39,451 bases of DNA from a phage. Shown piece by piece: positions 5,433 to 38,427 of this stretch (the stretch's first letter is position 1; each line of letters opens with the position of its first letter). The notes under the pieces are model-generated. The model saw only the letters and a program-made list of their open reading frames with translations. It did not search any database and was not told the origin of the DNA. The stretch lies in sequence record PZ445455.1; one strand, given 5' to 3'. The position numbers and the translations under genes were made by a program.

Positions 5433-8084
5433 ATGAACACGATTAACATCGCTAAGAACGACTTCTCTGACATCGAACTGGCTGCTATCCCGTTCAATAC
5501 TCTGGCTGACCACTATGGTGAGCGTTTAGCTCGCGAACAGTTGGCCCTTGAGCATGAGTCTTACGAAATGGGTGAAGCACGCTTCCGCAAGATGTTTGAG
5601 CGTCAACTTAAAGCTGGTGAGGTTGCGGATAACGCTGCCGCTAAGCCTCTCATTACTACACTACTCCCTAAGATGATTGCACGCATTAACGATTGGTTTG
5701 AGGAAGTGAAAGCTAAGCGCGGCAAACGCCCGACAGCCTTCCAGTTCCTGCAAGAAATCAAGCCGGAAGCTGTAGCGTACATCACCATTAAGACCACTCT
5801 GGCTTGCCTCACTAGCGTAGACAATACAACCGTTCAGGCTGTAGCGAGTGCAATCGGTCGAGCCATTGAGGATGAGGCGCGCTTCGGTCGTATCCGTGAC
5901 CTTGAAGCGAAGCACTTCAAGAAAAACGTTGAGGAACAGCTCAACAAGCGCGTGGGGCACGTCTACAAGAAAGCATTCATGCAAGTTGTCGAGGCTGACA
6001 TGCTCTCTAAGGGTCTACTAGGTGGCGAGGCGTGGTCTTCGTGGCACAAAGAGGACTCCATTCACGTTGGGGTGCGCTGCATTGAGATGCTCATTGAGTC
6101 AACTGGAATGGTTAGCTTACACCGCCAAAACGCTGGCGTAGTCGGTCAGGACTCTGAGACTATCGAACTCGCACCGGAATACGCTGAGGCTATCGCAACC
6201 CGTGCGGGTGCACTTGCTGGTATCTCTCCGATGTTCCAACCTTGCGTAGTTCCTCCTAAGCCGTGGACTGGCATTACAGGTGGTGGCTATTGGGCTAACG
6301 GTCGTCGTCCTCTGGCGCTGGTGCGTACCCACAGCAAGAAAGCACTGATGCGCTACGAAGATGTTTACATGCCTGAGGTATACAAGGCGATTAACATTGC
6401 ACAAAACACCGCATGGAAAATCAACAAGAAAGTCCTAGCGGTCGCCAACGTGATAACCAAATGGAAGCACTGCCCTGTAGAGGATATACCAGCGATTGAA
6501 CGTGAAGAACTCCCGATGAAACCGGAAGACATCGACACGAATCCGGAGGCTCTCACCGCGTGGAAACGTGCCGCTGCCGCTGTGTACCGTAAGGACAAGG
6601 CTCGAAAGTCTCGCCGTATCAGTCTTGAGTTCATGCTTGAGCAAGCCAACAAGTTCGCTAACCATAAGGCCATCTGGTTCCCTTACAACATGGACTGGCG
6701 CGGTCGCGTTTACGCTGTGTCAATGTTCAACCCGCAAGGTAACGATATGACCAAGGGCCTGCTGACGCTGGCGAAAGGTAAACCAATCGGTAAGGAAGGT
6801 TACTACTGGCTGAAAATCCACGGTGCAAACTGTGCTGGTGTCGATAAGGTTCCGTTCCCTGAGCGCATCAAGTTCATTGAGGAAAACCACGAGAACATCC
6901 TAGCGTGCGCTAAGTCTCCACTGGAGAACACTTGGTGGGCTGAGCAAGATTCTCCGTTCTGCTTCCTTGCGTTCTGCTTTGAGTACGCTGGGGTACAGCA
7001 CCACGGCTTAAGCTACAACTGCTCTCTTCCGCTTGCGTTCGATGGGTCTTGCTCTGGCATTCAGCACTTCTCCGCGATGCTCCGTGATGAGGTAGGTGGT
7101 CGTGCGGTTAACTTGCTGCCTAGTGAAACCGTTCAGGACATCTACGGGATTGTCGCTAAGAAAGTCAACGAGATTCTACAAGCAGATGCAATCAACGGGA
7201 CCGACAACGAAGTGGTTACCGTGACCGATGAGAACACTGGCGAAATCTCTGAGAAAGTCAAGCTGGGCACCAAGGCGCTGGCTGGTCAATGGCTTGCTTA
7301 CGGTGTTACTCGCAGCGTGACTAAGCGTTCAGTCATGACGCTGGCTTACGGGTCCAAAGAGTTCGGCTTTCGTCAACAAGTGCTGGAAGATACCATTCAG
7401 CCAGCTATCGATTCCGGCAAGGGTCTGATGTTCACTCAACCGAATCAGGCTGCTGGATACATGGCTAAACTGATTTGGGAAGCTGTGAGCGTGACGGTGG
7501 TAGCCGCTGTGGAGGCAATGAACTGGCTTAAGTCTGCCGCTAAGCTGCTGGCTGCTGAGGTCAAAGATAGGAAGACTGGAGAGATTCTGCGCAAGCGTTG
7601 CGCTGTACATTGGGTGACTCCTGATTCCTTCCCAGTTTGGCAAGAATACAAGAAGCCAATTCAGACTCGCTTGAACCTGATGTTCCTCGGTCAGTTCCGC
7701 TTACAGCCGACCATTAACACCAACAAAGATAGCGAGATTGACGCACACAAGCAGGAGTCCGGTATAGCACCCAATTATATACACAGTATGGACGCAAACC
7801 ACCTGCGACAAACCGTGGTGTGGGCTCATGAGAAGTATGGCATCGAGTCCTTCGCACTGATTCACGACTCCTTTGGGACAATTCCTGCTGATGCTGCCAA
7901 CCTGTTCAAAGCTGTGCGCGAAACTATGGTTGACACCTATGAGTCCTGTGATGTACTGGCTGACTTCTATGACCAGTTCGCTGACCAGTTGCATGAGTCT
8001 CAATTGGATAAAATGCCAGAACTTCCTGCTAAAGGTAACTTGAACCTCCAAGACATCCTTAAGTCAGACTTCGCGTTTGCGTAA
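5433..8084 (+). CDS. 1: Single-subunit DNA-dependent RNA polymerase (gp1)
   Basis: 883 aa, near-identical to T7 RNAP including specificity loop; matches T7-type promoters in the genome. Confidence 0.98.
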   Translation: MNTINIAKNDFSDIELAAIPFNTLADHYGERLAREQLALEHESYEMGEARFRKMFERQLKAGEVADNAAAKPLITTLLPKMIARINDWFEEVKAKRGKRPTAFQFLQEIKPEAVAYITIKTTLACLTSVDNTTVQAVASAIGRAIEDEARFGRIRDLEAKHFKKNVEEQLNKRVGHVYKKAFMQVVEADMLSKGLLGGEAWSSWHKEDSIHVGVRCIEMLIESTGMVSLHRQNAGVVGQDSETIELAPEYAEAIATRAGALAGISPMFQPCVVPPKPWTGITGGGYWANGRRPLALVRTHSKKALMRYEDVYMPEVYKAINIAQNTAWKINKKVLAVANVITKWKHCPVEDIPAIEREELPMKPEDIDTNPEALTAWKRAAAAVYRKDKARKSRRISLEFMLEQANKFANHKAIWFPYNMDWRGRVYAVSMFNPQGNDMTKGLLTLAKGKPIGKEGYYWLKIHGANCAGVDKVPFPERIKFIEENHENILACAKSPLENTWWAEQDSPFCFLAFCFEYAGVQHHGLSYNCSLPLAFDGSCSGIQHFSAMLRDEVGGRAVNLLPSETVQDIYGIVAKKVNEILQADAINGTDNEVVTVTDENTGEISEKVKLGTKALAGQWLAYGVTRSVTKRSVMTLAYGSKEFGFRQQVLEDTIQPAIDSGKGLMFTQPNQAAGYMAKLIWEAVSVTVVAAVEAMNWLKSAAKLLAAEVKDRKTGEILRKRCAVHWVTPDSFPVWQEYKKPIQTRLNLMFLGQFRLQPTINTNKDSEIDAHKQESGIAPNYIHSMDANHLRQTVVWAHEKYGIESFALIHDSFGTIPADAANLFKAVRETMVDTYESCDVLADFYDQFADQLHESQLDKMPELPAKGNLNLQDILKSDFAFA

Positions 8085-8738: not shown

Positions 8739-9755
8739 ATGATGAACATTAAGACCAACCCGTTTAAAGCAACGTCTTTCGTAGAGTCTGCCATTAAGAA
8801 GGCTCTTGATAACGCTGGGTATCTTATCGCCGACATTAAGTACGATGGTGTACGTGGGAACATCTGCGTAGACGATACTGCTAACAGTTGCTGGCTCTCT
8901 CGTGTATCTAAAACGATTCCGGCACTGGAGCACTTAAACGGATTCGATGTTCGCTGGAAGCGTCTGCTGAACGATGACCGTTGCTTCTACAAAGATGGCT
9001 TTATGCTCGATGGGGAACTCATGGTCAAGGGAGTAGACTTTAACACTGGGTCCGGCCTACTGCGTACCAAGTGGCTAAACAAGAAGAACTTTGAGTTCGA
9101 CGTTGGCGGTGTGCCACCACTTAAGGGGTCCAAGGTTGAGTTCGAGTTGGACACCAAACGTCTGAGTGTCCGACTGTACGCTATCCTCCCGCTTCACATC
9201 GTGGAGTCTGGGGAAGACCATGATGTCATGACGTTACTCATGCAGGAACACGTTAAGAACATGCTGCCTCTGCTACAGGAATACTTCCCTGAAATCGAAT
9301 GGCAAGCGGCTGAGTCTTACGAGGTTTACGACATGGTGGAACTACAGCAACTGTACGAGAAGAAGCGAGCGGAAGGCCATGAGGGTCTCATTGTGAAAGA
9401 CCCGATGTGCATCTACAAGCGCGGTAAGAAGTCCGGCTGGTTCAAGCTCAAGCCAGAGAACGAGGCTGATGGTATCATCCAAGGTGTGAATTGGGGTACA
9501 GAAGGTCTAGCCAACGAAGGTAAGGTAATAGGGTTCACGGTGCTTCTTGAGACAGGGCGTATTGTAGACGCTAACAATATCTCTCGCGCCTTAATGGACG
9601 AATTTACCGCCAACGTTAAGGAGCACGGGGAGGACTACTATAACGGATGGTCTTGCCAAGTAAATTATATGGAGGAAACAAAAGATGGAAGCCTTAGACA
9701 CCCTTCCTTCACCTGCTTCCGAGGGGTTGAGGGAAATCGTTGCGAAAAGATTTAA
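8739..9755 (+). CDS. 1.3: ATP-dependent DNA ligase (gp1.3)
   Basis: MMNIKTNPFKA...; contains KYDGVRG adenylation motif; 338 aa versus 359 in T7 (C-terminal region differs); start at ATG after ggag RBS, not the upstream in-frame ATG at 8724. Confidence 0.93.
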   Translation: MMNIKTNPFKATSFVESAIKKALDNAGYLIADIKYDGVRGNICVDDTANSCWLSRVSKTIPALEHLNGFDVRWKRLLNDDRCFYKDGFMLDGELMVKGVDFNTGSGLLRTKWLNKKNFEFDVGGVPPLKGSKVEFELDTKRLSVRLYAILPLHIVESGEDHDVMTLLMQEHVKNMLPLLQEYFPEIEWQAAESYEVYDMVELQQLYEKKRAEGHEGLIVKDPMCIYKRGKKSGWFKLKPENEADGIIQGVNWGTEGLANEGKVIGFTVLLETGRIVDANNISRALMDEFTANVKEHGEDYYNGWSCQVNYMEETKDGSLRHPSFTCFRGVEGNRCEKI

Positions 9756-10176
9756 GGTTAACAGGGAGGCTCCTAGCGGCCTCTCTCGCGTTAGCGGGAA
9801 ACCAGTCGGCTACAAGAAGTCTAGCGGATACTGGAATATCCACGTTTCCGTTAACAACAAGTCTCACCATCTACTTGCGCATAGGGTTATATGGGAACTC
9901 ACTTACGGAGAGATACCCTCTGGAATGCAGATAGACCACATTAATAGAGACAGGTCTGATAATCGCATAGAGAACCTTAGACTCGTTACTATGACAGAGA
10001 ATATGCACAATAAGGGAGACTACGTGACCAACACTACCGGTCATAAATACGTCATGTATCGTAAAGATAGGAATGCGTACATATTCAGAATAAAGCGATT
10101 TGGCAAACTACATACTTCATACCACAAGACTTTGGATGAGGCTGTGGAGGCCAAGCGGTTGTTCCTTAATCAGTAA
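9685..10176 (+). CDS. HNH endonuclease (putative homing endonuclease)
   Basis: 163 aa; HNH motif HHLLAHRVIWELTYGEIPSGMQIDHINRDRSDNRIENLRLVTMTENMHNK; ggagg RBS 9 nt upstream; overlaps ligase 3' end by 71 nt in another frame; stop abuts TE. Confidence 0.85.
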   Translation: MEALDTLPSPASEGLREIVAKRFKVNREAPSGLSRVSGKPVGYKKSSGYWNIHVSVNNKSHHLLAHRVIWELTYGEIPSGMQIDHINRDRSDNRIENLRLVTMTENMHNKGDYVTNTTGHKYVMYRKDRNAYIFRIKRFGKLHTSYHKTLDEAVEAKRLFLNQ

Positions 10177-11604: not shown

Positions 11605-11607
<3 letters not shown>

Positions 11608-11627
11608 TACGACTCACTATTAGGGAA
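11605..11627 (+). promoter_or_regulatory. Phage promoter phi2.5
   Basis: taatacgactcactattagggaa. Confidence 0.85.
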
Positions 11628-11672
11628 GACTCCCTTTGAGAAACCAAATGAAACCTAAAGGAGATTAACATT

Positions 11673-12371
11673 ATGGCTAAGAAGATTTTCACCTCTGCGC
11701 TGGGTACTGCCGAACCTTACGCTTACATCGCTAAGCCGGACTACGGTAACGAAGAGCGTGGCTTTGGGAACCCTCGCGGTGTCTACAAAGTTGACCTGAC
11801 TATTCCCAACAAAGACCCGCGCTGCCAGCGTATGGTCGATGAAATCGTGAAGTGTCACGAAGAGGCTTATGCTGCTGCCGTTGAGGAATATGAAGCGAAC
11901 CCGCCTGCTGTAGCTCGTGGTAAGAAACCGCTGAAACCATACGAAGGCGACATGCCGTTCTTCGATAACGGTGACGGTACGACTACCTTTAAGTTCAAAT
12001 GCTACGCGTCTTTCCAAGACAAGAAGACCAAAGAGACCAAGCACATCAATCTGGTTGTGGTTGACTCCAAAGGTAAGAAGATGGAAGACGTTCCGATTAT
12101 CGGCGGAGGCTCTAAGCTGAAAGTCAAATACTCTCTGGTTCCGTACAAGTGGAACACTGCTGTAGGTGCGAGCGTTAAGCTGCAACTGGAATCCGTGATG
12201 CTGGTCGAACTGGCTACCTTTGGTGGTGGTGAAGACGATTGGGCTGACGAAGTTGAAGAGAACGGCTATGTTGCCTCTGGTTCTGCCAAAGCGAGCAAAC
12301 CACGCGACGAAGAAAGCTGGGACGAAGACGACGAAGGCTCTTACGAAGAAGACTCAGACGGAGATTTCTAA
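11673..12371 (+). CDS. 2.5: Single-stranded DNA-binding protein gp2.5
   Basis: 232 aa with acidic C-terminal tail ending DGDF; near-identical to T7 gp2.5. Confidence 0.95.
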   Translation: MAKKIFTSALGTAEPYAYIAKPDYGNEERGFGNPRGVYKVDLTIPNKDPRCQRMVDEIVKCHEEAYAAAVEEYEANPPAVARGKKPLKPYEGDMPFFDNGDGTTTFKFKCYASFQDKKTKETKHINLVVVDSKGKKMEDVPIIGGGSKLKVKYSLVPYKWNTAVGASVKLQLESVMLVELATFGGGEDDWADEVEENGYVASGSAKASKPRDEESWDEDDEGSYEEDSDGDF

Positions 12372-12827
12372 GTGGCTGGCGCATACGCTGCGCGTGGTAT
12401 CCGAAAGGTCGGGGCATTCCGTTCCGGCCTAGAAGATAAGGTCTCTAAGCAGCTAGAGAGTAAAGGTATACAGTTTGATTACGAGCAGTGGAAGATTCCC
12501 TACGTAGTCCCTGCGAGTAATCATACCTATTGCCCAGATTTTCTACTGCCCAATGGTATCTTCATCGAGACCAAAGGGCTATGGGAAAGTGATGACCGCA
12601 AGAAGCATCTCCTGATTCGCGAGCAGATGCCTGAGCTGGATATACGACTTGTGTTCTCAAGCTCCCGCACAAAACTCTACAAAGGGTCTCCAACGTCCTA
12701 TGCAGAATTTTGTGAAAAGCACGGCATCAAGTTTGCTGATAAGCTGATTCCAGTTGAGTGGCTCAAAGAGCCTAAACGGGAGGTGCCATTCGATAAGCTC
12801 AAACAGTCAAAAGGAGCTAAGAAGTGA
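12372..12827 (+). CDS. 3: Endonuclease I (Holliday junction resolvase, gp3)
   Basis: 151 aa, GTG start immediately after 2.5 stop; near-identical to T7 gp3. Confidence 0.92.
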   Translation: MAGAYAARGIRKVGAFRSGLEDKVSKQLESKGIQFDYEQWKIPYVVPASNHTYCPDFLLPNGIFIETKGLWESDDRKKHLLIREQMPELDIRLVFSSSRTKLYKGSPTSYAEFCEKHGIKFADKLIPVEWLKEPKREVPFDKLKQSKGAKK

Positions 12828-13282
12828 TTCATCCAAAACTCTTGATAGAGCCGACCGATTCCTGTATTGAATGGACAGGCGCGTTCCACAAGAACGGGTA
12901 CGGAGTAATCTCTTTGAATCGCAAAGTGGCTGCCGAGCTAGGAATACCTAGGGTGCAATTTGTACACAGGGCAAGCTACATGCAGCATAAAGGAACTATA
13001 GGTGATGGACTTGTTGTTCGTCACTTGTGTCACAACAGAAAGTGTTTCAACCCAGCTCACTTGGAAGTCGGCACTCAGTACGATAACTTCGAAGATAGTG
13101 TTAAGGTTGGGCGCAACAAACGTAAACTGCTTGATGAGGACGTTAAATCAATTAGAGAGTCCACAATGAGTAACCGCAAGTTAGCCAAGCTATACGGTGT
13201 TAGCTCTACAACGATCTTCCACATCAAGCACAACAACAAGTGGAGGAATTTAAATGGCACGAGTACAATTCAAACAGCGTGA
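12824..13282 (+). CDS. HNH endonuclease with C-terminal helix-turn-helix (putative homing endonuclease)
   Basis: 152 aa; GTG start overlapping gene 3 stop, aaggag RBS; HNH motif VRHLCHNRKCFNPAHLEVGTQYDN; C-terminal NRKLAKLYGVSSTTIFHIKHN HTH-like; overlaps gene 3.5 start by 29 nt. Confidence 0.8.
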   Translation: MIHPKLLIEPTDSCIEWTGAFHKNGYGVISLNRKVAAELGIPRVQFVHRASYMQHKGTIGDGLVVRHLCHNRKCFNPAHLEVGTQYDNFEDSVKVGRNKRKLLDEDVKSIRESTMSNRKLAKLYGVSSTTIFHIKHNNKWRNLNGTSTIQTA

Positions 13283-13709
13283 AAGCACCGATGCAATCTT
13301 CGTTCATTGCTCAGCAACAAAACCTAATATGAATTGGGGTGTACGTGAGATTCGCCAGTCGCATAAAGAGCGTGGATTCCTAGATGTGGGATACCACTTT
13401 ATCATCAAGCGTGATGGTACTGTAGAGACCGGTCGAGACGAGATGGCTGTAGGCTCTCACGCTAAGGGCTACAATCACAACTCTATTGGTGTCTGCCTTG
13501 TAGGTGGCATCGACGATAAAGGTAAGTTTGACGCTAACTTTACGCCAGCCCAAATGCAATCCCTCCGCTCGCTGCTTGTCACACTTCTGGCTAAGTACGA
13601 AGGCGCTGTGCTTCGCGCCCATCACGATGTGGCACCTAAGGCTTGCCCTTCGTTCGACCTTAAGCGTTGGTGGGAAACTAACGAACTGGTCACTTCTGAC
13701 CGTGGATAA
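13254..13709 (+). CDS. 3.5: Lysozyme / N-acetylmuramoyl-L-alanine amidase and RNAP inhibitor (gp3.5)
   Basis: 151 aa; near-identical to T7 lysozyme. Confidence 0.95.
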   Translation: MARVQFKQRESTDAIFVHCSATKPNMNWGVREIRQSHKERGFLDVGYHFIIKRDGTVETGRDEMAVGSHAKGYNHNSIGVCLVGGIDDKGKFDANFTPAQMQSLRSLLVTLLAKYEGAVLRAHHDVAPKACPSFDLKRWWETNELVTSDRG

Positions 13710-13710
13710 T

Positions 13711-13733
13711 TAATTGAACTCACTAAAGGGAGA
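13711..13733 (+). promoter_or_regulatory. Phage promoter phi3.8-type (taattgaactcactaaagggaga), here directly upstream of gene 4
   Basis: Sequence matches the T7 phi3.8 variant; no gene 3.8 ORF follows. Confidence 0.75.
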
Positions 13734-13765
13734 CCACAACGGTTTCCCTTTGTTCGCATTGTTGA

Positions 13766-15539
<1,774 letters not shown>

Positions 15540-16568: not shown

Positions 16569-18683
16569 ATGATCGTTTCTGACATCGAAGCTAACGCCCT
16601 CTTAGAGAGCGTCACTAAGTTCCACTGCGGGGTTATCTACGACTACTCCACCGCTGAGTACGTAAGCTACCGTCCGAGTGACTTCGGTGCGTATCTGGAT
16701 GCGCTGGAAGCCGAGGTTGCACGAGGCGGTCTTATTGTGTTCCACAACGGTCACAAGTATGACGTTCCTGCATTGACCAAACTGGCAAAGCTACAATTGA
16801 ACCGAGAGTTCCACATTCCTCGTGAGAACTGTATCGACACCCTTGTGTTGTCACGCTTGATTCATTCCAACCTCAAGGACACCGATATGGGTCTTCTGCG
16901 TTCCGGCAAGTTGCCCGGAAAACGCTTTGGGTCTCACGCTCTGGAGGCGTGGGGTTATCGCTTAGGCGAGATGAAGGGTGAATACAAAGATGACTTTAAG
17001 CGTATGCTTGAAGAGCAAGGTGAAGAATACGTTGACGGAATGGAGTGGTGGAACTTCAACGAAGAGATGATGGCCTATAACGTTCAGGACGTTGTGGTGA
17101 CTAAGGCTCTACTTGAGAAGTTAATCTCTGACAAACACTACTTCCCCGACCAAGGTATCGACTGGACTGACGTAGGTAACACATTCTGGCGTGAGTCTGT
17201 AGAGGCCGTCGAGCTAGAGCATAAAGCTGCGTGGCTGCTCGCTAAGCAGGAACGTAACGGCTTTCCATTCAATACCAAAGCTATCGAAGAGTTGTACGTA
17301 GAGTTGGCTGCCCGTCGCTCTGAGTTGCTCCGTAAGCTGACCGAAACGTTCGGCTCATGGTATCAACCTAAAGGTGGCACTGAGATGTTCTGCCATCCAC
17401 GGACAGGTAAGCCACTACCTAAATACCCTCGCATTAAGACACCTAAAGTTGGTGGCATCTTTAAGAAGCCTAAGAACAAGGCACAGCGTGAAGGCCGTGA
17501 GCCTTGCGAACTGGATACCCGCGAGTATGTTGCTGGTGCACCTTACACTCCAGTAGAGCACGTGGTGTTTAACCCTTCGTCTCGTGACCACATTCAGAAG
17601 AAACTCCAAGAGGCTGGATGGGTCCCGACCAAGTACACCGATAAGGGTGCTCCTGTGGTGGACGATGAGGTACTCGAAGGAGTGCGTGTAGATGACCCTG
17701 AGAAGCAGGCTGCAATCGACCTCATTAAAGAGTACCTGATGATTCAGAAGCGAATCGGACAGTCTGCTGAGGGAGACAAGGCATGGCTCCGTTACGTTGC
17801 CGAGGACGGTAAGATTCATGGTTCTGTTAATCCCAACGGCGCTGTTACTGGTCGTGCTACTCATGCTTTCCCTAACCTAGCACAGATACCCGGTGTCCGT
17901 TCTCCTTACGGGGAGCAGTGTCGCGCTGCTTTTGGCGCTGAGCACCATTTGGATGGGCTAACTGGTAAGCCTTGGGTTCAGGCAGGTATCGACGCATCCG
18001 GCCTTGAGTTGCGCTGCTTGGCCCACTTTATGGCTCGCTTTGATAACGGTGAGTACGCTCACGAGATTCTTAATGGCGACATCCATACTAAGAACCAGAT
18101 GGCTGCTGAATTGCCTACCCGTGATAACGCTAAGACGTTCATCTATGGGTTCCTCTATGGTGCTGGTGATGAGAAGATTGGGCAGATTGTTGGTGCTGGT
18201 AAAGAGCGCGGTAAGGAACTCAAGAAGAAATTCCTTGAGAACACCCCCGCGATTGCAGCACTCCGCGAGTCTATCCAACAGACACTTGTCGAGTCCTCTC
18301 AGTGGGTAGCAGGTGAACAGCAAGTCAAGTGGAAACGCCGCTGGATTAAAGGTCTGGATGGTCGTAAGGTACACGTCCGTAGTCCGCATGCTGCCTTGAA
18401 TACCCTACTGCAATCTGCTGGTGCTCTCATCTGCAAACTGTGGATTATCAAGACCGAAGAGATGCTCGTAGAGAAAGGCTTGAAGCATGGCTGGGATGGG
18501 GACTTTGCGTACATGGCATGGGTACACGATGAAATCCAAGTAGGTTGCCGTACCAAAGAGATTGCTCAGGTGGTTATTGATACCGCACAAGAGGCAATGC
18601 GCTGGGTTGGAGACCACTGGAACTTCCGGTGTCTTCTGGATACCGAAGGTAAGATGGGTCCTAACTGGGCCGTATGTCACTGA
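16569..18683 (+). CDS. 5: DNA polymerase (family A, gp5) with thioredoxin-binding insert
   Basis: 704 aa; near-identical to T7 DNA polymerase. Confidence 0.98.
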   Translation: MIVSDIEANALLESVTKFHCGVIYDYSTAEYVSYRPSDFGAYLDALEAEVARGGLIVFHNGHKYDVPALTKLAKLQLNREFHIPRENCIDTLVLSRLIHSNLKDTDMGLLRSGKLPGKRFGSHALEAWGYRLGEMKGEYKDDFKRMLEEQGEEYVDGMEWWNFNEEMMAYNVQDVVVTKALLEKLISDKHYFPDQGIDWTDVGNTFWRESVEAVELEHKAAWLLAKQERNGFPFNTKAIEELYVELAARRSELLRKLTETFGSWYQPKGGTEMFCHPRTGKPLPKYPRIKTPKVGGIFKKPKNKAQREGREPCELDTREYVAGAPYTPVEHVVFNPSSRDHIQKKLQEAGWVPTKYTDKGAPVVDDEVLEGVRVDDPEKQAAIDLIKEYLMIQKRIGQSAEGDKAWLRYVAEDGKIHGSVNPNGAVTGRATHAFPNLAQIPGVRSPYGEQCRAAFGAEHHLDGLTGKPWVQAGIDASGLELRCLAHFMARFDNGEYAHEILNGDIHTKNQMAAELPTRDNAKTFIYGFLYGAGDEKIGQIVGAGKERGKELKKKFLENTPAIAALRESIQQTLVESSQWVAGEQQVKWKRRWIKGLDGRKVHVRSPHAALNTLLQSAGALICKLWIIKTEEMLVEKGLKHGWDGDFAYMAWVHDEIQVGCRTKEIAQVVIDTAQEAMRWVGDHWNFRCLLDTEGKMGPNWAVCH

Positions 18684-32066: not shown

Positions 32067-35000
32067 ATGGATAAGTACGATAAGAACGTACCAAGTGATT
32101 ATGATGGTCTGTTCCAAAAGGCGGCTGATGCCAACGGGGTCTCTTATGACCTTTTACGTAAAGTCGCTTGGACAGAATCACGATTTGTGCCTACAGCAAA
32201 ATCTAAGACTGGACCATTAGGCATGATGCAATTTACCAAGGCAACAGCTAAGGCCCTAGGTCTGAGAGTTACCGATGGTCCAGACGACGACCGACTGAAC
32301 CCTGAGTTAGCCATCAATGCTGCCGCTAAGCACCTTGCAGGTCTGGTGGGTAAATTCGATGGTGACGAACTCAAAGCTGCCCTTGCGTACAACCAAGGCG
32401 AGGGACGCTTGGGTAATCCACAACTTGAGGCGTACTCTAGGGGAGACTTCGCATCCATCTCTGAGGAGGGGCGTAACTACATGCGTAACCTTCTGGATGT
32501 TGCCAAGTCGCCTATGGCTGGACAGTTGGAAACTTTTGGTGGCATAACCCCAAAGGGTAAAGGTATTCCGGCTGAGGTAGGATTGGCTGGAATTGGTCAC
32601 AAGCAGAAAGTAACACAGGAACTTCCTGAGTCCACAAGTTTTGACGTCAAGGGTATCGAACAGGAGGCTCCGGCGAAACCATTCGCCAAGGACTTTTGGG
32701 AGACCCACGGAGAAACACTTGACGAGTACAACAGTCGTTCAACCTTCTTCGGATTCAAAGACGCTGCCGAAGCTGAACTCTCCAACTCAGTCGCTGGAAT
32801 GGCTTTCCGTGCTGGTCGTCTCGATAATGGTTTTGATGTGTTTAAAGACACCATTACGCCGACTCGCTGGAACTCTCACATCTGGACTCCAGAAGAGTTA
32901 GAGAAGATTCGAACCGAGGTTAAGAACCCTGCGTATATCAACGTGGTAACTGGTGGTTCCCCTGAGAATCTTGACGACCTCATTAAGCTGGCTAACGATA
33001 ACTTTGAGAATGACTCACGCGCTGCCGAAGCTGGACTTGGTGCCAAACTGAGTGCTGGCGTTATTGGTGCTGGTGTGGACCCACTCAGCTATGTTCCTAT
33101 GGTCGGTGTAACTGGTAAGGGCTTTAAGTTAATCAATAAGGCTCTTGTAGTTGGTGCCGAAAGTGCTGCTCTGAACGTTGCATCCGAAGGTCTCCGCACC
33201 TCCGTAGCTGGTGGTGACGCAGACTATGCTGGTGCGGCCTTAGGTGGCTTTTTGTTTGGCGCTGGTATGTCTGCAATCAGTGACGCTGTAGCTGCTGGTC
33301 TGAAACGTAGCAAACCAGAAGCTGAGTTCGATAATGAGTTCATTGGCCCTATGATGCGATTGGAAGCCCGTGAGACAGCGCGTAACGCCAACTCTGCGGA
33401 CCTCTCTCGTATGAACACTGAGAACATGAAGTTTGAAGGTGAACATAATGGTGTCCCTTATGAGGACTTACCAACAGAGAGAGGTGCCGTGGTGTTACAT
33501 GATGGCTCCGTTCTAAGTGCAAGCAACCCAATCAACCCTAAGACTCTCCAAGAGTTCTCCGAGGTTGACCCTGAGAAGGCCGCACGAGGAATAAAACTTG
33601 CTGGGTTCACCGAGATTGGCTTGAAGACCTTGGGGTCTGACGATGCTGACATCCGTAGAGTGGCTATCGACCTCGTTCGCTCTCCTACTGGTATGCAGTC
33701 TGGTGCCTCAGGTAAGTTCGGTGCAACAGCTTCTGACATCCATGAGAGACTTCGTGGTACCGACCAGCGTACTTACAATGACCTGTACAAAGCAATGTCT
33801 GACGCTATGAAAGACCCTGAGTTCTCTACTGGCGGCGCTAAGATGTCCCGTGAAGAAACTCGCTACACTATCTACCGTAGAGCGGCACTAGCTATTGAGC
33901 GTCCAGAACTACAGAAGGTACTCACTCCGTCTGAGAGAATCGTTATGGACATCATTAAGCGTCACTTTGACACCAAGCGTGAACTCATGGAGAACCCAGC
34001 AATCTTCGGTAATACGAAGGCTGTTAGTATCTTCCCTGAGAGTCGTCACAAGGGAACATACGTTCCTCATGTTTATGACCGCCATGCTAAGGCGTTGATG
34101 ATTCAACGGTATGGTGCCGAAGGTTTACAGGAGGCCATCAAGAAGTCATGGCTAGCAAGCTATGTGTCAAGACCTGAAGTCAAGGCACGAGTGGACGAGA
34201 TGCTGGCAGGGCAGTTACGGGCATCTCAACCAACAGGTAAGACTGCGGGTACTACACCTAATAAGCACTCTTCTGTCGACACAGCCCGTTACCAGATGAA
34301 ACTGGACGATGCAGCTACACAGGCAAGTGATAAGGTATCGGAACTAAAAGACGTCCTGACCAACGCTGAGAAGCGAGTTGCGGACCGTGAAAGGAAACTC
34401 CAGAACTCCAAGGACAGACTAGCTTCGCATGAGGCTAAGCTGAAGGAGTTGGAAGAAAAACTAGCTGCTAAACCTAATAGCAAAACCCTTCCTGTTAAGA
34501 TTGAGAGCCGGAAGCAGATGATTGAGACCCAGAAGTCTCACGTCCGTATTAACACAGAGCGTCTCGACTACATGAAAGGACAGGCTGCTAGGGTCCAAGA
34601 CAGAATCACCAAAGCCGCCGCCGAAGCTGAAGCAGCCGCCTCCGCTGCCAAAGGGCAGAAGACTACTGTTGGCGGTGAGGACACTACTGCTGGTGAGGCT
34701 ATATTAGGTAACGCACCTCAATCAGTACAAGAGGTGACTATGGACATGGTCGAGAAGTACGCTATGGACAAGGCATATGGTATCTCCCACTCTGACCAGT
34801 TCTCCAACAGCTCCGTAATTGAAGAGAACATTGAGGGCCTAGTAGGTATTGAGAACAACTCGTTCCTTGAAGCCCGTAACTTGTTTGATTCTGACATATC
34901 TATCACAATGCCGGACGGACAACAGTTTGCGGTGAACGACCTAAGGGACTTCGATATGTTCCGCATCATGCCAGCGTATGACCGCCGTATCAACGGCGAC

Positions 35001-36527
35001 ATCGCCATCATGGGGTCTACCGGTAAAACCACTAAGGAACTTAAGGATGAGATTTTGGCTCTCAAAGCGAAAGCTGAGGGAGACGGTAAGAAGACAGGCG
35101 AGGTCCATGCTCTCATGGATACCATTAAGATTCTTACTGGTCGTGCTCGACGCAATCAGGACACTGTGTGGGAAACCTCACTGCGTTCCATCAATGACCT
35201 AGGGTTCTTCGCTAAGAACGCCTATATGGGTGCTCAGAACCTTACGGAGATTGCTGGGATGATTGCCACGGGTAACGTGCGTGCTCTTGGTCACGGTATC
35301 CCAATTCTACGCGATACCCTCTACAAGTCTAAACCAGTTTCCGCTAAGGAACTCAAGGAACTCCATGCGTCTCTATTCGGGAAGGAGGTGGACCAGTTGA
35401 TTCGCCCTAAACGTGCTGACATTGTGCAGCGCCTAAGGGAAGCTACTGATACCGGACCTGCTGTGGCGAACATCGTAGGGACCTTGAAGTATTCCACACA
35501 GGAACTGGCTGCTCGCTCTCCGTGGACTAAGATGCTGAACGGAACCACTAACTACCTTCTTGATGCTGCGCGTCAAGGTATGCTTGGGGACGTTATCAGT
35601 GCCACCTTAACAGGTAAGACTACCCGTTGGGAGAAAGAGGGATTCCTTCGGGGTGCCTCTGTGACCCCTGAGCAGATGGCTGGCATCAAGTCTCTCATCA
35701 AGGAACACATGGTACGCGGTGAGGACGGTAAGTTTACCGTTAAGGACAAGCAAGCGTTCTCTATGGACCCTCGCGCTATGGACTTATGGCGACTTGCTGA
35801 CAAGGTAGCTGATGAGGCAATGCTGCGTCCGCATAAGGTGTCCTTACAGGATTCCCATGCGTTCGGGGCATTAGGGAAGATGGTCATGCAGTTTAAGTCC
35901 TTCACTATCAAATCCCTTAACTCTAAGTTCCTGCGAACCTTCTACGACGGGTACAAGAACAACCGAGCGATTGACGCTGCGCTGACTGGCATTATCTCTA
36001 TGGGTCTCGCTGGTGGTTACTACGCTATGGCTGCACACGTCAAAGCGTATGGAATGCCTAAGGAGAAACGTAAAGAATACTTGGAGCGTGCATTGGACCC
36101 AACCATGATTGCCCATGCTTCGTTGTCTCGTAGTTCTCAATTGGGCGCTCCTTTGGCTATGGCTGACCTAGTTGGCGGTGTCTTAGGGTTCGAGTCCTCC
36201 AAGATGGCTCGCTCTACGATTCTACCTAAGGACACCATGAAGGAACGTGACCCAAACAAACCGTACACCTCAAGAGAGGTAATGGGAGCTATGGGTTCGA
36301 ACCTTCTGGAGCAGATGCCTTCCGCTGGCTTTGTGGCTAACGTAGGGGCTACCTTAATGAATGCTGCTGGTGTGGTTAATTCACCTAACAAGGCAACCGA
36401 GCAGGACTTCATGACTGGCTTGATGAACTCTACCAAAGAGTTGGTCCCTAACGACCCTCTTACTCAACAGCTTGTTATGAAAATTTATGAGGCCAATGGT
36501 GTTAACTTGAGGGAGCGTCGGAAATAA
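32067..36527 (+). CDS. 16: Internal core / ejection protein gp16 with N-terminal lytic transglycosylase domain; contains about 175-aa insertion
   Basis: 1486 aa versus 1318 in T7; N-terminal transglycosylase region (TESRF...GPLGMMQFTKAT) and rest collinear with T7 gp16 except segment 34206-34730. Confidence 0.95.
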   Translation: MDKYDKNVPSDYDGLFQKAADANGVSYDLLRKVAWTESRFVPTAKSKTGPLGMMQFTKATAKALGLRVTDGPDDDRLNPELAINAAAKHLAGLVGKFDGDELKAALAYNQGEGRLGNPQLEAYSRGDFASISEEGRNYMRNLLDVAKSPMAGQLETFGGITPKGKGIPAEVGLAGIGHKQKVTQELPESTSFDVKGIEQEAPAKPFAKDFWETHGETLDEYNSRSTFFGFKDAAEAELSNSVAGMAFRAGRLDNGFDVFKDTITPTRWNSHIWTPEELEKIRTEVKNPAYINVVTGGSPENLDDLIKLANDNFENDSRAAEAGLGAKLSAGVIGAGVDPLSYVPMVGVTGKGFKLINKALVVGAESAALNVASEGLRTSVAGGDADYAGAALGGFLFGAGMSAISDAVAAGLKRSKPEAEFDNEFIGPMMRLEARETARNANSADLSRMNTENMKFEGEHNGVPYEDLPTERGAVVLHDGSVLSASNPINPKTLQEFSEVDPEKAARGIKLAGFTEIGLKTLGSDDADIRRVAIDLVRSPTGMQSGASGKFGATASDIHERLRGTDQRTYNDLYKAMSDAMKDPEFSTGGAKMSREETRYTIYRRAALAIERPELQKVLTPSERIVMDIIKRHFDTKRELMENPAIFGNTKAVSIFPESRHKGTYVPHVYDRHAKALMIQRYGAEGLQEAIKKSWLASYVSRPEVKARVDEMLAGQLRASQPTGKTAGTTPNKHSSVDTARYQMKLDDAATQASDKVSELKDVLTNAEKRVADRERKLQNSKDRLASHEAKLKELEEKLAAKPNSKTLPVKIESRKQMIETQKSHVRINTERLDYMKGQAARVQDRITKAAAEAEAAASAAKGQKTTVGGEDTTAGEAILGNAPQSVQEVTMDMVEKYAMDKAYGISHSDQFSNSSVIEENIEGLVGIENNSFLEARNLFDSDISITMPDGQQFAVNDLRDFDMFRIMPAYDRRINGDIAIMGSTGKTTKELKDEILALKAKAEGDGKKTGEVHALMDTIKILTGRARRNQDTVWETSLRSINDLGFFAKNAYMGAQNLTEIAGMIATGNVRALGHGIPILRDTLYKSKPVSAKELKELHASLFGKEVDQLIRPKRADIVQRLREATDTGPAVANIVGTLKYSTQELAARSPWTKMLNGTTNYLLDAARQGMLGDVISATLTGKTTRWEKEGFLRGASVTPEQMAGIKSLIKEHMVRGEDGKFTVKDKQAFSMDPRAMDLWRLADKVADEAMLRPHKVSLQDSHAFGALGKMVMQFKSFTIKSLNSKFLRTFYDGYKNNRAIDAALTGIISMGLAGGYYAMAAHVKAYGMPKEKRKEYLERALDPTMIAHASLSRSSQLGAPLAMADLVGGVLGFESSKMARSTILPKDTMKERDPNKPYTSREVMGAMGSNLLEQMPSAGFVANVGATLMNAAGVVNSPNKATEQDFMTGLMNSTKELVPNDPLTQQLVMKIYEANGVNLRERRK

Positions 36528-36599: not shown

Positions 36600-38399
36600 A
36601 TGGCTAACGTAATTAAAACCGTTTTGACTTACCAGTTAGATGGCTCCAATCGTGATTTTAATATCCCGTTTGAGTATCTAGCCCGTAAGTTCGTAGTGGT
36701 AACTCTTATTGGTGTAGACCGCAAGGTCCTTACGATTAATACAGACTACCGTTTTGCTACGCGTACTACCATCTCACTGACCAAGGCTTGGGGTCCGGCA
36801 GATGGCTACACTACCATCGAGTTACGTCGAGTAACCTCCACGACCGACCGCTTGGTTGACTTTACGGACGGCTCAATCCTCCGTGCGTATGACCTTAACG
36901 TTGCTCAGATTCAAACGATGCACGTAGCAGAAGAGGCCCGTGACCTAACTGCCGATACTATCGGTGTCAATAATGATGGTCACTTGGATGCGCGCGGTCG
37001 TCGAATTGTCAACCTAGCGAACGCCGTGGATGACCGTGATGCTGTTCCGTTTGGTCAACTTAAGACCATGAACCAGAACTCGTGGCAAGCACGTAATGAG
37101 GCCCTTCAGTTCCGTAATGAGGCTGAGACTTTCAGAAATCAAGCGGAGGGCTTTAAAACTGAGTCAGGTGCTAATGCTACTAATACGAAGCAGTGGCGTG
37201 ATGATGCTAAGGGGTTCCGAGATGAAGCCGAGCAGTTCAAGAATACGGCTGGTCAATATGCTACATCTGCTGGGAACTCTGCTACTGCTGCGCATCAATC
37301 TGAGGTAAACGCTGAGAACTCTGCCACAGCATCCGCTAACTCTGCCCATTCGGCAGAACAGCAAGCAGACCGCGCTAAGAGCGAGGCTGATAAGCTGGCG
37401 AATAATAATGCGTTCGCGGGGACGCTACACTCTATAACCCCAGATAACCCTGCTGTAATGGGCTCAGGTACTGTTACCTTCAAGTCGTCCTATGCGGTGA
37501 ATGCTCCAATACTTAGGGCGACAAAAGGTGGCATGTCTCTGGGGAGCGATAGAGTTGATGGAGATGGTACCTCCACGTTCATCAACTTCTACAAAGACTC
37601 TAGAAACACTGTAGGTAGTATTCAAGTAGGAGATGACGGCACATTCACCATAAATTCCAACGGCTGGACGAAACTCGCTGGCAGCGTCACACAGGTGAAC
37701 CAGCTGCGTTCTGGATACTCAGAGGTTACAGTAAACAACAACAATGTAGCCGTCCACGCCAGAGCAACAAATCTCAGTTGGGATGATGGTCAGACAAACG
37801 CAGTATATAACAGATACACGATTGCAGGACGAGGGTCTAGCGTCGAAGGGGTAGATGGAGCGATAATGGATTTTGGCATACGAGAGATAGTAGGTAACAG
37901 GTATGAGGCATATATGTGGGTAGCAGGCTTTGGTAGATCAGCTGTGTGGACATTTGGTCATACTGGCACGTTCACCAGCCCAGCCGATATAGTAGCCAAC
38001 GGGTCGTTAGTCGCTGGTAACAGTCTACGTATTGGGACATGTACCCACGCTTCCGATGGCAACATTTTTGGCTCTATCTGGGGTAACGATTGGTTAAGCA
38101 ATTACCTAAACAGGTCGTTTAAAAGGAAAACCAAAGAATGGACTTCGGTGTGGAATGGGAGAATAGGTGCTGGAGGTGTAGCATGGCTGACCCAAGATGT
38201 ACGTTTTAGAACCATTTGGATACGCACAGAGGCCCGGCCTTCTACGTGGACGCCAATTCAACTGGGCCCTGATGGGATGTACATGGCGCGACCTGACCCT
38301 GGCTGGATTCGGTTCACACTGGCTAACAATGGTACGTCCATAACCAACAACCAAGATGATAACTCTGTTCCTATCGAGATTGCCGTAGAGAATGAGTAA
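36600..38399 (+). CDS. 17: Tail fiber protein gp17 with divergent distal (receptor-binding) domain
   Basis: 599 aa; first about 260 aa near-identical to T7 gp17; remainder divergent but retains scattered gp17 tip motifs and C-terminal ...VENE. Confidence 0.93.
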   Translation: MANVIKTVLTYQLDGSNRDFNIPFEYLARKFVVVTLIGVDRKVLTINTDYRFATRTTISLTKAWGPADGYTTIELRRVTSTTDRLVDFTDGSILRAYDLNVAQIQTMHVAEEARDLTADTIGVNNDGHLDARGRRIVNLANAVDDRDAVPFGQLKTMNQNSWQARNEALQFRNEAETFRNQAEGFKTESGANATNTKQWRDDAKGFRDEAEQFKNTAGQYATSAGNSATAAHQSEVNAENSATASANSAHSAEQQADRAKSEADKLANNNAFAGTLHSITPDNPAVMGSGTVTFKSSYAVNAPILRATKGGMSLGSDRVDGDGTSTFINFYKDSRNTVGSIQVGDDGTFTINSNGWTKLAGSVTQVNQLRSGYSEVTVNNNNVAVHARATNLSWDDGQTNAVYNRYTIAGRGSSVEGVDGAIMDFGIREIVGNRYEAYMWVAGFGRSAVWTFGHTGTFTSPADIVANGSLVAGNSLRIGTCTHASDGNIFGSIWGNDWLSNYLNRSFKRKTKEWTSVWNGRIGAGGVAWLTQDVRFRTIWIRTEARPSTWTPIQLGPDGMYMARPDPGWIRFTLANNGTSITNNQDDNSVPIEIAVENE

Positions 38400-38427
38400 T
38401 CATTCACGTAAACCTTAGGAGGACAGT

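Follow-up and report, generated by a model that had tools for sequence, protein, structure and literature searches.

Phage T7 carries three HNH genes, 2.8, 3.8 and 7.7, which are treated as its three homing endonucleases (bioRxiv 10.1101/2025.09.07.674715). Genes 2.8 and 7.7 are short reading frames squeezed in between essential genes, with which they overlap, the former at the 2.5/3 junction and the latter at 7.3/8. In Yersinia phage phiA1122 a gene for a 152-aa protein, gene 3.3 (AAP20512 / NP_848276), occupies the slot between genes 3 and 3.5, with a GTGA start overlap on its left and a 29-nt overlap with gene 3.5 on its right. Copies of gene 3.3 are also present in Y. pestis phages R, Y, YpP-R, YpP-Y and YpsP-G, in E. 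coli phage PGX1 and in Shigella phage ESh2, and the databases name the gene variously 'protein 3.3' (GenBank AY247822), 'HNH endonuclease' (RefSeq) and 'putative homing endonuclease' (PGX1). Our literature search found no published cleavage activity, target site or homing for gene 3.3 or any orthologue, and the cleavage site of a gp3.3-type enzyme has seemingly never been mapped. In Hafnia phage Ca (Kayfunavirus) a GTG-started HNH homing endonuclease ORF overlaps both of its neighbours between genes 18.5 and 19, and its 397-bp presence/absence polymorphism was reported to be linked to plaque size (PMC8861465). Free-standing HNH homing endonuclease genes are a well known gene type in T7-like phages, and a further one carries little weight as a discovery.

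The window analysed here, the whole 39,451 nucleotides of phage sequence record PZ445455.1, is a Teseptimavirus genome and shares about 92-93% identity with T7-group phages, among them Bas103, which was the closest whole-genome relative found. It starts inside the large terminase gene (gene 19, positions 1-1761), followed by a consensus T7 promoter at 1855-1877; the record thus presents a linear T7-like genome in circularly permuted form, beginning elsewhere than at its natural left end. The features of the 3/3.5 region are the following.

11605-11629, plus strand: phi2.5-type T7 promoter (TAATACGACTCACTATTAGGGAAGA), the nearest upstream phage promoter, identified by sequence.
12372-12827, plus strand: gene 3 (endonuclease I, Holliday-junction resolvase), the upstream neighbour (Pfam Phage_endo_I, E 1e-81).
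12811-12816, plus strand: Shine-Dalgarno sequence AAGGAG, 7 nt upstream of the GTG, read from the sequence.
12824-13282, plus strand: gene 3.3-type HNH ORF, very probably a homing endonuclease gene, 152 aa with GTG start and TGA stop (ORF list and sequence).
12824-13252, plus strand: inserted segment relative to insert-free relatives, 429 nt replacing 2 nt (net +427).
12863-12865, plus strand: codon of Cys14, upstream of the nuclease core, invariant in a 27-sequence alignment.
12959-13087, plus strand: predicted His-Me finger (HNH_3) nuclease core, residues 46-88 (Pfam, phmmer, alignment, fold matches), including the predicted zinc ligands Cys69, Cys74 and His79 (aligned with I-PpoI; invariant).
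13022-13024, plus strand: codon of the predicted catalytic His67 (aligned with I-PpoI; invariant column).
13085-13087, plus strand: codon of the predicted metal ligand Asn88 (spacing relative to I-PpoI; invariant column).
13133-13228, plus strand: predicted C-terminal three-helix helix-turn-helix (HTH) DNA-binding domain, residues 104-135.
13242-13246, plus strand: replacement Shine-Dalgarno sequence GGAGG for gene 3.5, contained in codons Trp140-Arg141 near the 3' end of the endonuclease ORF.
13254-13282, plus strand: 29 nt by which the endonuclease frame runs on into gene 3.5, encoding a disordered, dispensable tail judging by pLDDT and by overlap lengths in orthologues.
13254-13709, plus strand: gene 3.5 (amidase / T7 lysozyme), the intact downstream neighbour (Pfam Amidase_2, E 1.7e-17).
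13711-13733, plus strand: phi3.8-type promoter, lying in the 71 nt that separate gene 3.5 from gene 4; T7 has gene 3.8 there.

An earlier note on this DNA, made from the letters alone, had described a 152-aa ORF with a GTG start overlapping the gene 3 stop and an end 29 nt inside gene 3.5, and the sequence reads exactly so: the GTG (12824-12826) shares bases with the gene 3 stop TGA (12825-12827) as GTGA, and the ORF stop (13280-13282) lies 29 nt within gene 3.5, whose ATG is at 13254. The note had also regarded the ORF as inserted between two genes that abut in T7, and had proposed a comparative alignment of the junction. The alignments bear this out, with genes 3 and 3.5 abutting not only in T7 but in most relatives. 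When genes 3 to 3.5 were compared by blastn with the insert-free LNA7 and T7, the match stopped at 12823 and restarted at 13253, the segment 12824-13252 being absent from both phages. The empty junction is uniform (...AAAGGAGGAAAGAAATAATGGC...), with the gene 3 TAA overlapping the gene 3.5 ATG as TAATG, and reads AAATAATGGC in insert-free phages; the window has ...AAAGGAGCTAAGAAGTGATT...[insert]...TGGAGGAATTTAAATGGC... in its place. A net insertion of 427 nt is thereby placed exactly at the TAATG stop/start overlap of the two genes. Exactly 426 nt separate the gene 3 stop from the gene 3.5 ATG in each of the eight carriers compared (the window, ESh2, PGX1, phiA1122, Cedecea phage Yanou, Yersinia phage Rambo, Aeromonas phage KFSA9 and Klebsiella Przondovirus PRA33). 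Both neighbouring genes remain full length with full-length Pfam matches, the gene 3.5 product has 94-97% amino acid identity to T7-group lysozymes, and the endonuclease ORF has its own start and stop. Junction alignments with insert-free relatives require no intron-like features to restore either gene. The endonuclease gene is free-standing and lies between genes, with its neighbours intact.

The translation signals at the two edges complement each other. In insert-free phages the counterpart of the AAGGAG at 12811-12816 serves gene 3.5. As read from these signals, the insert adopts this old ribosome-binding site for its own GTG and is translationally coupled to gene 3 through the GTGA. Gene 3.5 receives in exchange a new GGAGG, contained in the last codons of the endonuclease ORF and 7 nt before the ATG, so that neither neighbour is damaged, and this replacement is kept as (T)GGAGG or (T)GGAGA in carriers. 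The 29-nt overlap with gene 3.5 is the endonuclease frame continuing to the first stop; in orthologues the corresponding overlaps range from 8 to 38 nt. The phi2.5-type promoter drives genes 2.5, 3, 3.3 and 3.5; our scan found no T7-type promoter between 11629 and 13711, and sigma-70 promoter and terminator scans gave hits at chance level only. We therefore ruled out a promoter or terminator belonging to the endonuclease gene, which, lacking a promoter of its own, belongs to the class II transcription unit and is expressed together with its DNA-metabolism genes. The locus may serve as a worked example of an insertion in a stop/start overlap that spares both neighbours, reusing the resident ribosome-binding site and supplying a replacement.

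The ORF is intact at all eight orthologous loci examined, with a dN/dS of 0.04-0.10, and is therefore not a chance reading frame; an overprinted frame was ruled out on the same grounds. Its dN/dS is as low as that of genes 3 and 3.5, which indicates that the gene is maintained and not decaying.

The earlier note had seen an HNH motif and an HTH-like C-terminal segment in the protein and had suggested a domain search for HNH_3 plus HTH. Both assignments agree with our searches. The motif, VRHLCHNRKCFNPAHLEVG, spans residues 65-83, and Pfam HNH_3 (PF13392) matches residues 46-88 well above cut-off (E 1.8e-10, 40.7 bits vs 24.8), with a marginal match to zf-His_Me_endon (PF05551; 2.9e-6, 28.0 bits vs 27). 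The HTH_psq, HTH_23 and HTH_7 profiles match residues 101-137, all sub-threshold, and the model described below has three helices there. PHROG 59 'HNH endonuclease' also matches the ORF (E 2e-30). One large protein database search returned 33 homologues, 27 of which were aligned, down to 31% identity. Invariant in these 27 are Cys14, Tyr26, His48, His67, Cys69, Cys74, Asn76, Pro77, His79, Leu80, Gly83 and Asn88; absence of the HNH catalytic residues, which would have spoken against the note's reading, is contradicted by His67 and Asn88 in this list. By phmmer, His67 aligns with the catalytic His98 of I-PpoI, and Cys69, Cys74 and His79 with its zinc ligands Cys100, Cys105 and His110 (I-PpoI residues 91-116), while Asn88 falls on the I-PpoI metal ligand Asn119 by spacing. 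The predicted roles are those of a general base for His67, a metal ligand for Asn88 and zinc ligands for Cys14, Cys69, Cys74 and His79.

In a search of PDB sequences the matches to I-PpoI were only marginal (E 0.06), so that a comparison of folds was needed. An AlphaFold model built on the homologue alignment (mean pLDDT 84.8) has a beta-beta-alpha core (strands 64-67 and 80-83, then helix 85-94), a C-terminal group of three helices spanning 104-135, and a disordered stretch at residues 142-152 (pLDDT below 50). The model matches both I-HmuI and I-PpoI, and its C-terminal half matches HTH DNA-binding domains, not I-PpoI. By profile, and by a conserved general-base His and metal-binding Asn in the modelled beta-beta-alpha fold, the protein is classified as a predicted HNH / His-Me finger nuclease. 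The order of domains, a zinc-stabilised beta-beta-alpha-metal nuclease, a linker and a C-terminal helix-turn-helix, is that of I-HmuI, and the two-domain build with an N-terminal nuclease and a C-terminal HTH in one monomer is I-HmuI-like. I-HmuI (PDB 1U3E), an intron-encoded HNH nicking endonuclease of Bacillus phage SPO1, has only 18-20% identity to the window protein and lacks its I-PpoI-like Cys/His zinc loop, and unlike I-HmuI the window gene is free-standing. The alignment with I-PpoI, a His-Cys box enzyme, is limited to the common core (query residues 60-85), and the HTH at the C-terminus of the window protein has no match in I-PpoI. The I-PpoI structure has a second zinc site and is a domain-swapped dimer on a palindromic site. 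Membership in the His-Cys box family was rejected, the core being common and the full architecture differing.

Among T7 proteins, gp7.7 (40% identity, E 3e-32, full length) and gp2.8 (39% identity, E 3e-23, essentially full length) are paralogues of the window endonuclease. They have a common build with it, consisting of a Cys-x-x-W-x-G N-terminus, an HNH_3 domain with zinc loop and a C-terminal 'YGVS..TI' HTH, and all three genes are wedged between essential genes in the same overlapping manner. The insertion sites differ, both T7 slots being empty in the window, and T7 gene 2.8 adjoins gene 3 on the side opposite to gene 3.3 of the window. T7 gp3.8 belongs to another HNH_3 subfamily. The statement that the window carries its HNH genes at loci other than those of T7 proved right, as no homologue was found in the window in T7 slots 2.8, 3.8, 5.3 and 7.7; phiA1122 differs in having retained gene 3.8. 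The T7 comparison in the earlier note was sound as to the empty 3.8 and 5.3 slots and mistaken as to gp5.3, which is a PD-(D/E)XK protein (PDDEXK_5) and not an HNH protein. The corrected T7 list (2.8, 3.8 and 7.7 as HNH, 5.3 as PD-(D/E)XK) should be useful for annotation. The note had called the gene at 3/3.5 the second HNH gene of this DNA, and there is indeed another HNH_3 gene at window 9685-10176 on the plus strand (163 aa, E 2e-23), which is of the T7 gp3.8-like subfamily and related to gp3.8 itself (E 5e-13). This other gene lies directly after the ligase gene, overlapping its 3' end by about 70 nt; the region is unmatched in ESh2, PGX1 and Bas103, and the gene is therefore a sporadic insert as well. 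In Bas103 (PQ850602.1, 17649-20364) the annotation assembles the DNA polymerase gene from two parts and places an HNH endonuclease ORF within it, an intron-type insert, whereas gene 5 of the window (16569-18683) is uninterrupted.

The gene at 3/3.5 is an orthologue of phiA1122 gene 3.3, and is an intact copy of a catalogued selfish nuclease gene. The novelty implied by the earlier note does not hold, since the gene had already been deposited and named. Apart from the start codon, its product has 100% amino acid identity to the ESh2 and PGX1 products, and it has about 97% identity to phiA1122 gp3.3. A megablast search with positions 12300-13800 returned 224 related phage records, of which only about 15 covered the whole query; the others gave two-piece matches that skip the ORF. 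Likewise, 22 of 23 gene 3-gene 3.5 junctions in IMG/VR were empty and one had an insert. The IMG/VR protein scan gave phiA1122 as its sole match, and the carriers were therefore drawn from the GenBank phage collection. A tblastn search found orthologues (at least 68% amino acid identity) at the 3/3.5 slot in about 57 records, some 40 of them Klebsiella phages; homologues of any kind numbered roughly 840 phage records. Carriers come from two genera, Teseptimavirus and Przondovirus; in Bas103 genes 3 and 3.5 abut with no insert. The presence of gene 3.3 is sporadic, at one precise site among close relatives, and this distribution contradicts an ancestral gene present throughout the group, the other finding that would have counted against the note.

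The insert is 99% identical to ESh2 and PGX1, compared with about 93-95% typically elsewhere in the genome, and is among the best-conserved stretches; dS relative to ESh2 is 0.046 for the insert, 0.13 for gene 3 and 0.30 for gene 3.5. Relative to phiA1122, dS is 0.33 for the endonuclease gene and 1.7 for gene 3, whose allele to the left of the insert differs (80% nucleotide identity), pointing to an exchanged left flank. The gene 3 block 12447-12830 is a divergent allele relative to phiA1122 and Yanou, with 10-20 mismatches per 60 nt, and its right end is the left edge of the insert; an exchange boundary therefore coincides with the element. Relative to the distant carriers KFSA9 and PRA33, however, the endonuclease gene has diverged as much as its flanks or more, and its deep history may have been one of prolonged vertical inheritance with losses. 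This gene 3 allele has 97% identity to ESh2/PGX1, about 80% to phiA1122/Yanou, 78-79% to Bas103 and 73% to T7. The flanking gene 2.5 is 95-98% identical to that of all of ESh2, PGX1, phiA1122, Yanou, Bas103 and T7. Nine synonymous differences after the gene 3.5 ATG are common to the window, ESh2, PGX1 and phiA1122. Yanou is a carrier and yet has the insert-free type of gene 3.5 flank, so that this block reflects linkage and not immunity, and we rejected it as a protected target site. No strictly carrier-specific substitutions were found in the last 150 nt of gene 3 or the first 150 nt of gene 3.5, and the target is therefore not locatable from the sequence.

Taken together, the ORF is very probably a free-standing HNH (His-Me finger) homing endonuclease gene and the orthologue of phiA1122 gene 3.3. 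We infer homing from the conserved domain and residues, the sporadic distribution at an exact site, the empty junction of Bas103, the high similarity of the insert, the breakpoint at its left edge and the low dN/dS. Its paralogues T7 gp2.8 and gp7.7 (together with gp3.8), which are treated as homing endonucleases, speak for it as well, as does the analogous indel-polymorphic Hafnia HNH gene, which is at another locus and of another subfamily. When a cell is infected by both a carrier and an insert-free relative, the monomer would use its HTH and nuclease domains to bind an extended asymmetric site, located in or close to the empty 3/3.5 junction, and would nick or cut it. The T7 recombination machinery (gp6, gp2.5 and gp3) would mend the break from the insert-bearing genome, and the recipient would thereby acquire the endonuclease gene along with flanking DNA of variable length. 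In the simplest model, a carrier would be protected because the insertion itself splits the putative recognition site.

Purifying selection on the gene is as strong as on its essential neighbours, and a purely selfish element would not require so much. The likeliest alternative, which we consider rather improbable, is a domesticated nuclease or DNA-binding protein retained for phage benefit and not for homing. Such a protein might cut co-infecting relatives, in the manner of interference competition or marker exclusion, or might blunt a DNA-end-sensing host defence by binding without catalysis. Besides the dN/dS, the invariance of the catalytic and zinc residues would fit this explanation. Both an I-HmuI-like phage HNH protein (bas24_0090) and a T7 gp3.8 deprived of catalysis are reported to weaken the GAPS4 defence, and the same preprint describes infections in which wild-type T7 competes with a mutant that lacks 2.8, 3.8 and 7.7 (10.1101/2025.09.07.674715). 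However, these anti-defence data come from other subfamilies than the gp3.3/7.7/2.8 type, and the gene is absent from more than 90% of close relatives. Domestication and homing are compatible and can both hold. More speculatively, the whole gp3.3/2.8/7.7 subfamily might be kept in T7-like phages for phage benefit, either excluding co-infecting relatives or masking DNA ends from break-sensing defences independently of catalysis, as is reported for other phage HNH homing endonucleases. Since the subfamily flanks gene 3 on either side in different phages (2.8 in T7, 3.3 here) and a breakpoint lies at the insert edge, the resolvase gene may mark a preferred exchange boundary. We offer these proposals tentatively and think them unlikely.

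Still less probable is an ancestral resident of the Studiervirinae 3/3.5 junction, inherited vertically, deleted many times and no longer mobile. The identical insertion point and 426-nt gap in carriers from both genera would be expected of such a gene. So would the situation in KFSA9 and PRA33, since divergence that roughly tracks the flanks is as compatible with prolonged vertical inheritance and losses as with repeated homing. Against an ancestral resident, the empty junctions are a uniform, seamless TAATG with no deletion scars, the gene is far more similar to ESh2/PGX1 than the surrounding genome, a recombination breakpoint lies at its edge, and a decaying relic would hardly combine an intact catalytic site with strong purifying selection. 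A packaging-associated HNH protein, that is a terminase cofactor like HK97 gp74, is suggested only by the status of the product as a small phage HNH protein, an idea raised for T7-like phages (PMC8861465), and was rejected as extremely improbable on position and distribution, the gene lying among the DNA-metabolism genes at a great distance from genes 18 and 19, being absent from most T7-group phages and having an I-HmuI-like architecture with a sequence-reading HTH.

Comparison with the same phages brought up further differences outside the 3/3.5 region. The gene 16 ORF (window 32067-36527) encodes 1486 aa, compared with 1318 aa in Bas103. Its extra in-frame segment of about 170 aa (~34200-34650) is unmatched in ESh2, PGX1 and Bas103 and gave no Pfam domain; phage NC-A has it in its gp16 (96%), as do several Klebsiella and Enterobacter phages. 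PGX1 (OQ703770.1) is missing nearly all of its RNA polymerase gene: nothing in it matches window 5600-7800, and the sole 'RNA polymerase' CDS in its annotation is 90 nt long. Its lysozyme gene is also truncated. This is odd for a viable T7-like phage unless the host supplies T7 RNA polymerase or the assembly is defective. The distal tail fibre of the window (~37200-38400; ORF 36600-38399) is without detectable nucleotide similarity to ESh2, PGX1 and Bas103, which suggests a swapped receptor-binding module.
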